32,000 nucleotides of DNA, taken from assembly GCA_029269845.2 (NCBI GenBank), contig CP149973.1, positions 2,100,001 through 2,132,000 on the forward strand, read 5' to 3'. The notes below the pieces were generated by a model that saw nothing but the letters and a program-made list of their open reading frames with translations, had not been told where the DNA came from and ran no database searches. This document shows, in pieces, positions 1,595 to 14,626 of this stretch; within the stretch, counting starts at the first letter, position 1, and every line of letters begins with the position of its first letter. Source of the stretch: Opitutia bacterium KCR 482. Lineage in GTDB: Bacteria; Verrucomicrobiota; Verrucomicrobiia; Opitutales; Intestinicryptomonadaceae. The translations under genes were made by a program, and so were the position numbers.

Positions 1595-4003
1595 TTAAAA
1601 TTCCCCGCGCCCCACGAGCAACGCGTAGTTGTTGCCCCATTCGCTCGACGCAATGCACATTATTTTTTTCGGGTTGTCGGGCAGTTTTGCCTCGTCGAAA
1701 AGTTTTACGCCGGTGCGCTGTTTCCAGAGCGGTCTGCCGCCCGCCAAGGCTTCGAGCGCGAACACGAGCGTTGCGGGCGCGGACGCCGTTTCGAGGTATC
1801 CCGTGTTGAGCGAGCTTGCGAGCATCGGGGCGTCGGGGAAGAGCGTGTCGCGGACGAACACCGCGACGGAGTCTTGCGCGCAGCCGCGCGGACTCCACAA
1901 AACCAAGTCGATTTCCTCCGCGCGAATCTTTGCCGCGTCAAGTGCTTCGCGCGCCGCCCGCAGGAGTCCGTCGTTGTCCAAGTTGTGCGAGCCGAACGCG
2001 CAGGCGTCGGAAGCCGCCGCAAAGGCGAGAATTTCGCCGAGGATTTTTGCTCCCCGCGCTTTCGCTGTTTCCGCGTCTTCGACGAGCGCCGCAGCCGCGC
2101 CCTCGCCGAGCACTCCGCACGAGGGCGTCGAAAAGCTTAGCCTGAAATTTTCCTCTATCGCGCCCCTGTGGATTTTCCCGAATTTTTCGTAGGCGTCTAT
2201 TTCGCGCTTGTAGAGTTCGTCGGCGGCGATTGCGAGCACGCTTTTTACGGCGTTTTCGCGGACGAGCCGCGCCGCGTGTCCGAGCGTTTGCAGCCCCGAA
2301 TTCGGGCCGGACGTCAGCGTGATGTTCGCGCCCTTTATTTCGAGAGCCTTCGACACCCAGCCCGCCGTCGAGTTCGGCGTGATGTTCGAGAAGCAGGCGA
2401 TGTCGCCGCGGTTGTCGGGCGACGAGAACACCGCCTCCATGTGCGCGGTTTCCGACGAGCCGCGGCATGTGGAAACCGCAAGCCCCACGCTTTCGCAGTT
2501 GTCCCTGCGGATTCGCAGCCCAGCCTTGTCGAGCGCGCCCTTTGCGGCGAGCGTCGCCATGACCGCAATCGGCGTCATTCCCGAAAAATCGACGCGCCTG
2601 TCGAGCGTCCGCGGGTTCGGCAGGTTCACTAGCCCCGCGCTGCGCTCCGACTCGAAGCGCGAAATTTTCGCCACTCCCGATTCTCCGTTTTCGAGCGCAT
2701 CGATGTTCTTTTCCGTCCCGATTCCGAGCGGCGTTATCGCCGAACAGCCCGTGATTACCGTGCGGACTTCCGATTCGGGCTTTTCGCGCCGAACAAACGA
2801 GTCTTTCGCCACGACCACCGCCGCGTTGTTGCCCGCAAACGCGTAGTTTGCCGAAATGAAGCGGTCGTATTCGGTTTCGATTCCCGCGCCGCCGACAGCC
2901 TCTATTTCGCAGCCCGCGCGTGCGCCCACATTGCGGAGCGTGGGCGGAATGAAATTGTCGTTCATTGCCAGCAGCTGGCATGTCGCCTCTATTATTCCCG
3001 TCGCGCCCATGCAGTGCCCCGTGTACGATTTTGTCGAGGTCGTCGGCACGTTTGCGCCGCCGAGAAATTTTGCTATTCCCTTCGATTCAGCTCTGTCGTT
3101 TGCCGCCGTTCCGGAGCCGTGGGCGTTTATGCAGCCAGCTTCGGCGGGCGAAATTCCCGCGTCGGCCGCGGCGTCGCGCATGGTGCGGAACGCGCCGTCG
3201 CCGCGGGGGTCGGGCTGCGTGGGGTGGTGGGCGTCGCCGCTTGTGGCGTGCCCTACGATTTTCCCGTAGATTTTCGCCCCCCGCGCCTTTGCGATTCCCC
3301 TGTTTTCGATAATCCAGAACGCCGCGCCCTCGCCGATGTTCATTCCCACGGGCGTCGAAAACGGCGCGATTTTTTCGGGCGACATCACCTTGATTGCGTT
3401 GAAGCCCGCGAAGTTCGACAACGCCGCCGCGTCCGCGCCGCCCGCCAAGACGCAGTCGTAGCGTCCCGACTCCACGAGCGACTGCGCAATTCCCAACGCC
3501 GCCGTCGAGCCAGAGCACGCCGTGTTGATTACAATGCACTCGCCGCCGATTTTAAGCGCGTCCGCCACCGCCTTGCCGATTGCGTAGTTTTCGTACTGGT
3601 CAAGCTCGGCTTTGCCGAATTTTACGGACGGGTCGCGGTACTGCGCTACGTATTCCGCTTCTCCCGAATTTAGACCTGCGTTGCACGTTGCAAGCACCGC
3701 CGCCGTGCGGGGGGGCAGGGCGGGAAGCCCCGCGTTTTTCGCCGCCCGCCGCGCTGCGGAAATGGCGAGCCGCAGGAAGGGGTCGGTAAAAGTTTCAAGC
3801 TCGGCGGCGGACATTTCCGCGGCGTAGTCGAAATGCGTTTCGCCGCACATTTGCGACGCGAAGCGCGACGCGTCTATTTTCGTCGCCTGCGCAATGCCGT
3901 CGCGCCCCGCGCGGAGGGAGGCGAGAATGGACTCGCAGTCGTTGCCTATCGGCGTGATTGCGCCTATTCCCGTGATTGCGGCCTCAATTTTGTTTTGTTG
4001 CAT
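1595..4003 (-). CDS. Fused beta-ketoacyl-ACP synthase plus chain-length-factor-like domain (KS-CLF single chain)
   Basis: 802 aa. The N-terminal half has the KS triad motifs INTACSGSTAA, GDAHHPT, INAHGSGTAAND and GHCMGATG. The C-terminal half is KS-like, but the active-site position reads TLTSGPNSG (no Cys). The start overlaps the upstream gene by 20 nt. Confidence 0.85.
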   Translation of the reverse strand: MQQNKIEAAITGIGAITPIGNDCESILASLRAGRDGIAQATKIDASRFASQMCGETHFDYAAEMSAAELETFTDPFLRLAISAARRAAKNAGLPALPPRTAAVLATCNAGLNSGEAEYVAQYRDPSVKFGKAELDQYENYAIGKAVADALKIGGECIVINTACSGSTAALGIAQSLVESGRYDCVLAGGADAAALSNFAGFNAIKVMSPEKIAPFSTPVGMNIGEGAAFWIIENRGIAKARGAKIYGKIVGHATSGDAHHPTQPDPRGDGAFRTMRDAAADAGISPAEAGCINAHGSGTAANDRAESKGIAKFLGGANVPTTSTKSYTGHCMGATGIIEATCQLLAMNDNFIPPTLRNVGARAGCEIEAVGGAGIETEYDRFISANYAFAGNNAAVVVAKDSFVRREKPESEVRTVITGCSAITPLGIGTEKNIDALENGESGVAKISRFESERSAGLVNLPNPRTLDRRVDFSGMTPIAVMATLAAKGALDKAGLRIRRDNCESVGLAVSTCRGSSETAHMEAVFSSPDNRGDIACFSNITPNSTAGWVSKALEIKGANITLTSGPNSGLQTLGHAARLVRENAVKSVLAIAADELYKREIDAYEKFGKIHRGAIEENFRLSFSTPSCGVLGEGAAAALVEDAETAKARGAKILGEILAFAAASDACAFGSHNLDNDGLLRAAREALDAAKIRAEEIDLVLWSPRGCAQDSVAVFVRDTLFPDAPMLASSLNTGYLETASAPATLVFALEALAGGRPLWKQRTGVKLFDEAKLPDNPKKIMCIASSEWGNNYALLVGRGEF

Positions 4004-4514
4004 TCCGATTTGTGTTTAAGGTTGAAACGAATTCGAGCGCGAGCGTGTAGCTTTCCGCCTCGATTTTAATTTTCGTCGGGATTTCGCGCCCGCCGATTTT
4101 TTTGAAATTTCCGAAAACCGCCCTGTATCCGTCGAACGACACCGATTCGAGCCTGTCGCCCGACCTCCCGAAAAACACGGTGTCTGCATTCCCGAAACCG
4201 CCGAATCCGAGCACGATTCGGAGGTCGCGCAGGGCGAATTTTTCGGCGAGCCTTTGCGGCAGAATCGCGCTTCCCTCGCACGAGGCGTTTCCGTCGGCGT
4301 CCGCCGAGATTTTCGCGAGCCTCCCCGCGACGCCCTGCAAGACCATCTGCGCCGAGTTTTCTCCGCCCGCAACGTACACTGTAAGCGCGATGTCCGCGCC
4401 GCCTGCCGAGAGAATCCCGCGCTGAATGTACGACATTCCCCGCAGCGGGTAGTCTGCCGCGAATGCTGCCGCGCAGAGCATGAGCGCGAGGGCGACTGTT
4501 GCGAGTTTGCGCAT
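3984..4514 (-). CDS. Small secreted protein of unknown function; it occupies the position of the small DUF3261-type lipoprotein of aryl-polyene-type clusters
   Basis: Internal ATG at 4514 gives MRKLATVALALMLCAAAFA/ADY, a signal peptide. The Arg-rich 91-aa extension of the 267-aa track ORF was rejected. A 1-nt gap separates it from the upstream stop. The family assignment comes from context only. Confidence 0.55.
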   Translation of the reverse strand: MRKLATVALALMLCAAAFAADYPLRGMSYIQRGILSAGGADIALTVYVAGGENSAQMVLQGVAGRLAKISADADGNASCEGSAILPQRLAEKFALRDLRIVLGFGGFGNADTVFFGRSGDRLESVSFDGYRAVFGNFKKIGGREIPTKIKIEAESYTLALEFVSTLNTNRNATKQN

Positions 4515-4515
4515 T

Positions 4516-13536: not shown

Positions 13537-13537
13537 A

Positions 13538-14626
13538 TTATTTTGCGTCGGCGCGGCGTTGCGATGCGGGCTTTTCGGGTGAGTCGGAATAGTCGTCCGA
13601 AGTTTTCGCGCCCGCGAATTTGCCGCTCCATTCGAGCAGCGCCGCGCCCCACGAAAGCCCCACTCCGAACGCGCAGACGGCGACTTTCATGCCCGCTTTC
13701 AGCCTGCCGTTTATCGCGGCGTCGGCGAGGGCAATCGGCACGCTTGCGCCGCCGCAGTTGCCGATGTCGTGCATTTTAAAATAGACTTTTTCGGGCGGAA
13801 TTTTCAGCCTGTCGGCGGCGGCGGAGACCATCATTTCGCCCGCCTGATGGAAAACGAAAAGGTCGATGTCGTCCACGCCCATTCCGTTTTTTTTCAGCAG
13901 TTCGTTCACCGCCTGCGGGATTGTCTTGTAGGCGAACGCGAAAATTTTGAAGCCGTCTATTTTCATGTTGGCGTTCGTCCTGACGTTGCCGTCGGCGTCG
14001 GTGTATTCCTCGAAATCGCGCGGGGTGGGGGGGGTGCGCATGCCCGAAGTCGGGCAGATGAGGTCGGCGTAGCCCGCGCCGTTCGTCCCGAAAACAAAGT
14101 CGATGTAGTCGTCGGATTTTTCGACGATTGTAGCCGCCGCGGCGTCCCCGAAAAGCGACACCGAGCTTTTGTCCATGGGGTGGATTAGCCGCGTGGCGGT
14201 GTCGGCGGTTATCACCAGCGCCCTGCGGGCGAGCGACGCTTCGAGCCACGCGCCCGCCGTCGCCAGCGCGTAGGGGAACTGCGAGCACCCCAAGTTTATG
14301 TCGAAAGCCGCGCACGACTTCCCAAGCCCGAGTCTGTCCTGCATAATGCAGGCGTTCGACGGCATGGCGTAGTCGGGCGTTTGGGTTGCGAAGAGAAGCA
14401 GGTCTATGCTTTCGGGGCTTGCGAGGGCGTTGCCGAACAGCATTCGCGCGGCGTTTTCGGCGAGGTCGGAGGCGCAAGTGTCTGCGCCAACCGTGCGGCG
14501 TTCGAGAATCCCGGACATCGCCGCGATTTTGTCGGCGGTCTCCGTCCCGAAGCGTGCGCGCATTTCGTCAAGCCCGACCCTGTTCGAACCCGTTGCGTAT
14601 GCGATTGCTGTTATTGCGGCTTTCAT
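13538..14626 (-). CDS. 3-oxoacyl-ACP synthase III (FabH-like KSIII) with a charged roughly 30-aa C-terminal tail
   Basis: 362 aa. Cys-His-Asn triad motifs NLGCSQF, FVFHQAGEMM and IGNCGGASVP. Convergent with fabG, with a 1-nt gap. Confidence 0.85.
   Translation of the reverse strand: MKAAITAIAYATGSNRVGLDEMRARFGTETADKIAAMSGILERRTVGADTCASDLAENAARMLFGNALASPESIDLLLFATQTPDYAMPSNACIMQDRLGLGKSCAAFDINLGCSQFPYALATAGAWLEASLARRALVITADTATRLIHPMDKSSVSLFGDAAAATIVEKSDDYIDFVFGTNGAGYADLICPTSGMRTPPTPRDFEEYTDADGNVRTNANMKIDGFKIFAFAYKTIPQAVNELLKKNGMGVDDIDLFVFHQAGEMMVSAAADRLKIPPEKVYFKMHDIGNCGGASVPIALADAAINGRLKAGMKVAVCAFGVGLSWGAALLEWSGKFAGAKTSDDYSDSPEKPASQRRADAK

Follow-up and report, generated by a model that had tools for sequence, protein, structure and literature searches.

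An aryl-polyene-type lipid gene cluster with a conserved ACP/T-protein-like gene pair in an Opitutia bacterium: a probable member of a widespread sub-family

We analyzed a 32-kb stretch of DNA from Opitutia bacterium KCR 482 (CP149973.1, 2,100,001-2,132,000; hereafter the window, whose numbering is used throughout), in which a block of genes at 1595-14626 resembles the clusters for aryl polyene (APE) lipids and additionally encodes a protein with the fold of T-proteins (GcvT). The block contains 12 intact, full-length open reading frames (ORFs). Even though the G+C content of 53-63% over the cluster produces many spurious ORFs, a single consistent gene model emerged, and the gene content and domains proposed in a first-pass annotation of the same DNA were confirmed by Pfam and NCBIfam searches. 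The minus-strand operon encodes, in the order of transcription, a family 2 glycosyltransferase (GT2) of the polyprenyl-phosphate/ArnC/PpgS type (10648-11358; Pfam Glycos_transf_2), an HpnN-like and ApeM-like MMPL/RND exporter (8324-10651; Pfam MMPL, 1.2e-13), an LpxL/LPLAT-type acyltransferase (7476-8327; Pfam Lip_A_acyltrans, 1.4e-13), an ApeE-like acyl carrier protein with a PP-binding domain and a GLGLDS motif (ACP1, 7154-7417), a fusion between a ketosynthase (KS) and a chain-length factor (CLF) of 693 aa with a Pfam Ketoacyl-synt_2 domain in the C-terminal half (KS-CLF2, 5076-7157), a LolA-like periplasmic or lipoprotein carrier of 187 aa with a lipobox-like LAAC within its signal peptide (4516-5079), a small secreted protein of 176 aa with an N-terminal signal peptide and no family match (3984-4514), and a second KS-CLF fusion of 802 aa with the Pfam domains ketoacyl-synt and Ketoacyl-synt_C (KS-CLF1, 1595-4003). 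The divergent plus-strand operon consists of a second ApeE-like carrier protein with a PP-binding domain (ACP2, 11447-11728), the T-protein-fold (GCV_T) protein of 348 aa (11725-12771; Pfam GCV_T, 3.9e-31), and a FabG/ApeQ-like 3-oxoacyl-ACP reductase (12790-13536; adh_short_C2, 1e-67). The minus-strand gene for a FabH-type ketosynthase III (KSIII, 13538-14626; ACP_syn_III and ACP_syn_III_C) is convergent with the FabG gene. Direct reading of the letters verified the five ATGA start/stop overlaps described before, seen as TCAT on the plus strand at 5076, 7154, 8324, and 10648 and as ATGA at 11725. The ATG of the acyltransferase gene at 8327 thereby overlaps the stop codon of the MMPL gene, and the stop codon of ACP2 overlaps the start of the T-protein-like gene. 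The cluster genes are translationally coupled.

The ape cluster of Escherichia coli CFT073 (locus L012), whose genes have been experimentally dissected, was fetched and compared with the window by BLASTP, with the gene roles taken from the literature (bioRxiv 10.1101/2020.12.19.423268; PMC8253772; PMC8358021). The APE core has been defined as apeO/R, apeE/F, apeC, apeI/P, apeQ, and apeM (bioRxiv 10.1101/2020.12.19.423268), and the window contains the ApeO/ApeR-type KS, the CLF, the ApeE-type ACPs, the ApeQ ketoreductase (KR), and the ApeM MMPL protein from this set, while the dehydratases (DHs) ApeI/ApeP and aryl starter activation are absent. The N-terminal half of KS-CLF1 shares 31% identity with ApeO (1e-37; about 30% to ApeO/ApeR), and its C-terminal half 26% with ApeR (1e-13). 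KS-CLF2 shares 35% identity with ApeO in the N-terminal half (2e-52) and shows a weak match to ApeC in the C-terminal half (E 0.06); its best NCBIfam model is PRK09185 with 273 bits against a cut-off of 407. The N-terminal halves of both fusions keep the Cys-His-His residues, all three of which are lost in the C-terminal halves, as in ApeC. The C-terminal halves, which had been flagged as places where a hot-dog or dehydratase domain might hide, hold no such domain; they are degenerate KS domains of the CLF type. KS-CLF1 probably combines an active-type FabF/ApeO/ApeR-like KS with a degenerate ApeR-like KS, and KS-CLF2 appears to be an ApeO-like KS with its active-site triad, fused to an ApeC-type chain-length factor.

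The remaining chain-building proteins follow the same pattern of similarity. ACP1 and ACP2 are 46% and 38% identical to ApeE, respectively, and reach 68.8 and 45 bits on NCBIfam PRK09184, for which the cut-off is 70. The FabG protein shares 31% identity with ApeQ (1e-35) and 64-70% with the FabG proteins of related clusters, and it scores 268 bits on the 3oxo_ACP_reduc model of NCBIfam (cut-off 298). The KSIII exceeds the cut-off of NCBIfam PRK09352 (NF006829; 256 bits against 249), and its translation holds the Cys-His-Asn motifs GCSQ, HQAG, and GNCG.

The first-pass annotation had recognized an export and attachment signature of APE-type clusters among the minus-strand genes, which proved correct by direct homology to ApeJ and ApeM. 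The GT2 matches residues 8-235 of ApeJ (33% identity, 8e-39), and the acyltransferase matches residues 235-550 (25% identity, 3e-14), with the conserved His visible in the motif alignment. Together, they presumably represent a split ApeJ. The NCBIfam matches of the GT2 are to AglJ, PpgS, and ArnC-type models, all below cut-off. The MMPL protein is 20% identical to ApeM (2e-8) and matches NCBIfam HpnN at 1.6e-25, below the cut-off. The alignment of the LolA-like protein with ApeL is colinear but weak (hhalign E 0.046). The small secreted protein is kept at the same position in the relatives described below with 26-46% identity. It has no match in Pfam or NCBIfam, the homologue search returned only near-identical sequences, and the single-sequence AlphaFold2 (AF2) model was unusable, with a predicted local distance difference test (pLDDT) score of 38; judged from its position, it may be an analogue of ApeN/DUF3261. 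In Xenorhabdus, ApeJ has been proposed to place N-acetylgalactosamine on a glycerophosphate lipid, after which it would acylate this sugar with the chain carried by ApeE, and ApeM, ApeL, and ApeN have been proposed as lipid exporters (bioRxiv 10.1101/2020.12.19.423268; PMC8253772).

The lack of dehydratase, thioesterase (TE), starter-activation, and methyltransferase genes, which had led to the earlier suspicion of an unusual product, held up in the window by Pfam, NCBIfam, and tblastn searches alike. No hot-dog, thioesterase, AMP-binding, ammonia-lyase, or methyltransferase domain was detected in any cluster protein by Pfam or NCBIfam. Tblastn searches across the 32-kb window with E. coli ApeA, ApeB, ApeD, ApeG, ApeH, ApeI, ApeK, ApeL, ApeN, and ApeP, and with the DH, TE, FMN-reductase, PlsC, and DedA proteins of the relatives, returned no match with an E-value below 0.1. 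The idea that the fusions or small ORFs conceal a hot-dog, TE, or adenylation domain was rejected on the basis of Pfam, NCBIfam, and tblastn.

The AF2 model of the T-protein-like protein was confident (pLDDT 96.5) and resembled the T-proteins 1YX2 and 1WOS with a template modeling (TM) score of 0.86 in Foldseek (E about 1e-28). The next-best folds were the folate domains of dimethylglycine dehydrogenase, sarcosine oxidase, and DmdA, and LigM, YgfZ, and Iba57 were much poorer matches. The protein reached 91.5 bits on the GcvT model NF001567 (cut-off 300) and 70.4 bits on TIGR00528 (cut-off 235.85), and NCBIfam contains no specific model for it. Of 29 T-protein-like sequences, 27 have Glu or Asp at the position of the catalytic Asp (D96), and the RxGxTGExGY motif does not vary. 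The T-protein-like gene is immediately preceded by an APE-type ACP gene in all 84 loci with enough upstream sequence, and the two genes overlap or nearly overlap in every inspected pair, including the relatives L013, L014, and L015 with 31-39% identity. Three database representatives (P0022, P0144, and P0161) are natural fusions with an N-terminal ACP that lack at least the first 30 positions of the GCV_T profile. The window contains neither gcvH nor gcvP. The association with ACP genes and the ACP fusions bear out the earlier assignment of the GcvT-like gene to the cluster, and the T-protein-like protein is, by this genomic context, a dedicated partner of ACP2 and a real, non-canonical cluster member.

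An initial homologue search for the T-protein-like protein returned 25 clusters with 38-99% identity, one of which was an ACP fusion. Among 1.84 billion representatives searched, 20 matched at E < 1e-30, followed by a continuum to ordinary T-proteins, and a scan of metagenome contigs with the family alignment found at least 461 loci encoding a relative of the T-protein-like protein, some of them on contigs labeled human gut. Gene neighborhoods were surveyed by tblastn over 33 loci with at least 9 kb upstream and at least 5 kb downstream (long loci); these counts include near-identical contigs, are not independent, and are descriptive only. The survey revealed a conserved 10-gene core composed of two KS-CLF fusions, the small secreted protein, the LolA-like protein, ACP1, the acyltransferase, the MMPL protein, the GT2, ACP2, and the GcvT-like protein. 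The order of the core is kept in independent contigs, with amino-acid identities of 26-83% across the proteins. The arrangement is not due to chance, given that many independent contigs share this gene order at 35-75% identity. A KS or KS-CLF gene was found in 31 of the 33 long loci, a KR in 27, a single FabZ/ApeI-like DH in 20, an ApeK-like 4HBT thioesterase in 20, a PlsC/ApeD-like acyltransferase in 19, a KSIII in four, and an ApeB-like methyltransferase in one. ApeH homologues were found in none of the 33, and neither the cluster nor any of these loci contained an adenylating enzyme, an ammonia-lyase, or a chorismatase. Most loci add the ApeK-like thioesterase, FabG, a flavoprotein with four cysteines of the iron-sulfur (Fe-S) type, the FabZ-like DH, the PlsC/ApeD-like acyltransferase, and DedA to the core. 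The FabZ-like DH of the relatives carries the active-site motifs LPHRxPFLxVD and GHFP..PxMPGVL. Some loci, such as L002, have the core plus DedA only. L002 is without a KR within the fetched flanks, and the core therefore evidently borrows housekeeping fatty acid synthase (FAS) enzymes.

The window belongs to a clade (the window, L004-L009, and L018) that has FabG and KSIII and none of the other accessory genes, and the KSIII is confined to L004-L009 and L018 among the relatives. L004 is 95% identical to the window over the GcvT-like gene. The sister lineage L005-L009 is more distant, with cluster proteins 44-83% identical to those of the window, and shows the same DH-less, KSIII-bearing architecture, again with no DH or TE within 10 kb. 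From the comparison of these loci, the absence of a DH in the window is a clade-specific accessory state, with a KSIII where the relatives have the TE, the Fe-S flavoprotein, the DH, and PlsC, and not a defining trait of the pathway. No characterized cluster with this gene content was found in literature searches, and we found no relevant paper linking GcvT or aminomethyltransferases with aryl polyene or KS/ACP clusters. As far as sequence comparison can tell, what is new here is the pairing of an ACP with a T-protein-like protein, together with the family-wide absence of an aryl-priming enzyme.

The accessory genes of the relatives show further variation. The flavodoxin-like/FMN_red protein (L001, 12216-13277; L010, 12217-12942; L098, 10001-11065) has four invariant cysteines (CxxCxxC...C), like iron-sulfur flavoproteins, and in some FMN_red homologues a lipid-binding domain (SCP2 or Alkyl_sulf_C) is present at the C terminus. 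These features suggest that the relatives have a redox step directed at a lipid, which the window cluster lacks. Environmental variants contain a FeeM-like N-acyl amino acid synthase fused to a class I/II aminotransferase (nine loci), a FabD-like malonyl transacylase (19 loci), or a membrane-anchored AAT/C45 acyltransferase-like protein (at least six loci); example coordinates of these extra genes are L057 15517-17358, L089 ~2700-3564, and L090 15953-17713. The 8-kb contig L015 (1-8214, 39% identity) belongs to a distant relative and encodes an ACP, the GcvT-like protein, and a 4HBT thioesterase, all three divergent from a 171-aa ORF and the genes for MMPL, LolA, and DUF8321/DUF8322 proteins, and has no KS gene. 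The ACP/GcvT-like pair thus travels with the export module there, too.

The closest known systems are the APE lipid (APEL) clusters of E. coli CFT073 and Xenorhabdus doucetiae. KS-CLF2 would correspond to ApeO plus ApeC, the C-terminal half of KS-CLF1 is ApeR-like, the two ACPs are of the ApeE type and the KR of the ApeQ type, and the GT2 with the LpxL-type acyltransferase would stand for ApeJ, next to the ApeM-type MMPL protein and the LolA-like carrier. The shared logic would be the assembly of a chain on a dedicated ACP, its transfer to a sugar-phospho-glycerolipid, and transport to the outer membrane. In contrast to the APEL clusters, however, KS and CLF are fused and ApeJ is split into two genes in the window, which also lacks ApeH (loading of 4-hydroxybenzoic acid), ApeB, ApeI/ApeP, ApeK, ApeD, ApeG, and ApeA, and adds the ACP-coupled T-protein-fold protein and the FabH-type KSIII. 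The relatives of the window differ from the APEL clusters in having one FabZ-like DH instead of the ApeI:ApeP pair, plus the Fe-S flavoprotein. The flexirubin and xanthomonadin clusters share the weak LolA2 match, the MMPL, GT2, and acyltransferase genes, and a FlxB-like short-chain dehydrogenase/reductase (209 bits against a cut-off of 340). Unlike these clusters, the window was found to contain no tyrosine ammonia-lyase, CoA ligase, chorismatase, halogenase, or methyltransferase, and no DarA/DarB, with the KSIII scoring 40 bits on the DarB model (cut-off 550). We know of no GcvT-like gene in flexirubin or xanthomonadin clusters. The N-terminal KS halves of the window also resemble the KSs of type II polyene polyketide synthases with KS-CLF pairs, namely ishigamide Iga11/12 (PDB 6KXD, 3.7e-49) and cispentacin AmcF/G (NCBIfam AmcF, 240 bits), whereas those pathways make soluble products with separate KS and CLF and have neither an export/anchoring module nor a T-protein. 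To our knowledge, the aryl-primed proteobacterial type is the only one that has been dissected among the APE-type systems.

Based on these comparisons, we consider it probable, though well short of certain, that the window cluster is an intact member of a widespread, uncharacterized sub-family of APE-type lipid clusters, with its biochemical steps read from homology. The product would most likely be a glycolipid with an acyl or polyenoyl chain and no aryl group, destined for export to the outer membrane. In the proposed pathway, the two KS-CLF fusions, the two ApeE-like ACPs, and the ApeQ-like KR would join malonyl units into one or two long chains of the acyl or polyenoyl type. An aryl starter would not be used, and in the window clade, the FabH-type KSIII would prime with a short acyl-CoA. 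Dehydration, for which the relatives presumably use the FabZ-like enzyme of their clusters, would have to be supplied by a housekeeping FabZ or by a gene located beyond the window. The ArnC/PpgS-like GT2 would, by homology to ApeJ, put a sugar on a glycerophospholipid phosphate, and the LpxL-type acyltransferase would esterify this sugar with the chain held on the ACP. Transport of the glycolipid to the outer membrane would then fall to the MMPL pump, the LolA-like carrier, and the small secreted protein.

As GcvT does with the lipoyl arm of the H-protein, the T-protein-fold protein presumably acts on the phosphopantetheine arm of ACP2, in a core step that is probably initiation or early modification. 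The likeness to GcvT comprises the three-domain fold (TM 0.86), the acidic residue at the position of the catalytic Asp, the RxGxTGExGY motif, and a small swinging-arm carrier protein as the partner. By analogy, we infer that the arm of ACP2 enters the central cavity of the T-protein-like protein. In contrast to GcvT, the partner in the window is a phosphopantetheinyl ACP instead of a lipoyl H-protein, genes for the P- and L-proteins are absent nearby, several pocket residues are replaced in a protein that stays below the family cut-offs, and the gene forms part of a KS/KR operon. Because the T-protein-like protein shows the same degree of conservation as the KS genes and most variants are without another priming enzyme, it seems most likely to function in chain initiation or early modification. 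The role of an aryl O-demethylase (LigM/DesA-like) was considered and appears unlikely, with sequence and fold much closer to true T-proteins and no ligase to load an aryl acid. More tentatively, and with the odds clearly against it, the ACP/T-protein-fold pair could be a previously unrecognized priming or early-tailoring module for type II FAS-like or polyketide synthase (PKS)-like machinery, in which a GcvT-type enzyme would use the phosphopantetheine thiol of the ACP as GcvT uses the dihydrolipoyl arm of the H-protein. Speculatively, a one-carbon or aminomethyl unit might be loaded or removed, for example by a Mannich-type condensation with malonyl-ACP that would give a β-amino acyl starter.

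The first-pass annotation had arrived at a different product, judged "probably not a polyene"; on this reading, a pathway that never dehydrates would make a β-hydroxy or β-keto (polyol-like) lipid by an undescribed logic. We regard this as unlikely. It would fit the absence of DH and TE genes from the window and from within 10 kb in L005-L009, the intact ORFs of a cluster kept between two lineages at 44-83% identity, and the two inspected flavoprotein matches that gave no stand-alone DH module. However, in 20 of the 33 long loci, the same core adjoins a FabZ-like DH whose active-site motif is intact, and the frequent TE (20 of 33) and KR (27 of 33) genes further weaken the claim. L002, devoid of a KR in its fetched flanks, indicates that β-carbon processing can come in trans from the housekeeping FAS. 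Because of L002 and the clade-specific nature of the DH gap, a non-polyene product is not established. Moreover, we know of no KS of the KS-CLF class, from FAS or type II PKS, that repeatedly extends β-hydroxyacyl chains. An ordinary aryl-polyene pigment cluster, with aryl activation, DHs, and TE encoded elsewhere in the genome, seems less probable still. The strong homology to ApeO, ApeC, ApeR, ApeE, ApeJ, ApeM, and ApeQ speaks for it, as do antiSMASH-based surveys reporting "arylpolyene" clusters in Opitutales (bioRxiv 10.1101/2020.05.05.072835). Against it stand the missing ApeH-like gene (0 of 33 long loci) and the single ApeB-like methyltransferase (1 of 33), the T-protein-like gene as the universally conserved extra gene, and NCBIfam APE-type models that all remained below cut-off.

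We attach very little probability to a decaying remnant, in which the loss of the DH, TE, flavoprotein, and PlsC genes and the insertion of an integrase would have left a non-functional cluster. Four accessory genes of most relatives are indeed missing and an integrase sits at the cluster edge, but all 12 ORFs are of full length with preserved start/stop overlaps, and the integrase lies outside the cluster. Furthermore, the DH-less KSIII architecture is kept in the second lineage at about 44-83% identity, which argues for purifying selection and against a remnant. It is hardly credible that ACP2, the GcvT-like gene, and FabG are merely unrelated neighbors, such as a housekeeping T-protein, as their separate divergent operon and the best family matches to GcvT models might suggest. 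The neighborhood survey effectively refutes this idea, with the ACP upstream in 84 of 84 loci, the three ACP fusions, and a KS-CLF nearby in 31 of 33 long loci; in addition, no gcvH or gcvP is nearby, and the protein scores 91 bits against an equivalog cut-off of 300.

Several observations nevertheless weigh against an intact, aryl-free APE-type lipid cluster. The sub-family has no member with an established product or phenotype, and the locus counts are not independent, as mentioned above. The DH and TE are absent from the window, and the source of the presumed dehydration was not located. A profile search with the Fe-S flavoprotein, which accompanies the DH in the relatives, yielded, in the two matches inspected, further complete clusters of other species and no stand-alone DH module. 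In the export part, the LolA-like protein matches its families under the curated cut-offs (Pfam LolA, E 3.7e-4; NCBIfam LolA, 2.2e-6, and LolA2_flexi, 6e-6), the comparison of the small secreted protein with ApeN/DUF3261 was not significant by hhalign, and no equivalent of ApeD or ApeG was found in the window. In the T-protein-like family, Y83, Y100, Y169, Y188, E195, and R227 (T. maritima numbering) are replaced, which we take to be residues lining the folate pocket of T-proteins in the T. maritima and human structures. Folate dependence is doubtful because these residues are not conserved.

An intact cluster of this kind would imply a distinct, so far unknown outer-membrane lipid in Opitutia and other bacteria, and possibly a new kind of chemistry on carrier proteins for a fold that has otherwise been seen only in folate-dependent one-carbon transfer. 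Should the ACP/T-protein pair indeed be a priming or early-tailoring module, which we hold to be improbable, it would mark out a new class of outer-membrane glycolipids without aryl groups, widespread in the environment, in Verrucomicrobiota and other bacteria sampled in many metagenomes. The conserved gene pair and its natural fusions offer a directly testable hypothesis.

As for the flanks of the cluster, a 3'-5' exonuclease gene (282-1202, plus strand; Pfam) lies on one side and a tyrosine integrase gene (14626-15669, minus strand; Phage_integrase) on the other. The integrase occupies the same site in L018 (99% identity) and L004 (94%) and is absent from the sister lineage L005-L009, in which the KSIII, 75% identical to that of the window, directly abuts the orthologue of the beta-helix gene (compare the regions L005, 11906-15380, and L007, 11894-15360). 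From this distribution, the integrase is a later insertion beside an already DH-less, intact cluster. Truncation by the integrase was rejected as the cause of the gene set, which the sister lineage has without an integrase. No tRNA or Rfam elements were found near the integrase or in the gap at 1203-1594, and a megablast search for a plasmid origin returned no match.

The exonuclease and KS-CLF1 genes converge on a gap of 392 bp (1203-1594) that holds no convincing ORF; the ORF at 1206-1598 is Arg-rich, without a family match, and most likely not a gene. The gap contains short direct repeats about 64-87 nt apart and recurring T-rich-GCGCG motifs, in which Tandem Repeats Finder detected no tandem array, and the motif TTTGCGCRG is only marginally enriched in the window. 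The remaining genes of the window encode a beta-helix protein, carbohydrate enzymes of the rhamnosidase and glucuronyl-esterase types, and a PEP-CTERM-tagged protein. The latter (18457-20031, minus strand) has 524 aa and ends in VPEPAEWAAIFGAIALGLAVYRRRK, a PEP-CTERM-type sorting signal, in keeping with a host from the Verrucomicrobiota; neither this protein nor the ORF at 20304-21893 has a Pfam match. Between the integrase and the beta-helix gene lies a terminator-like element consisting of a perfect 16-bp inverted repeat followed by a T-run (15982-16014), just upstream of which the 14-nt unit GCGTTTGGCGTTTG is tandemly duplicated (15932-15959).

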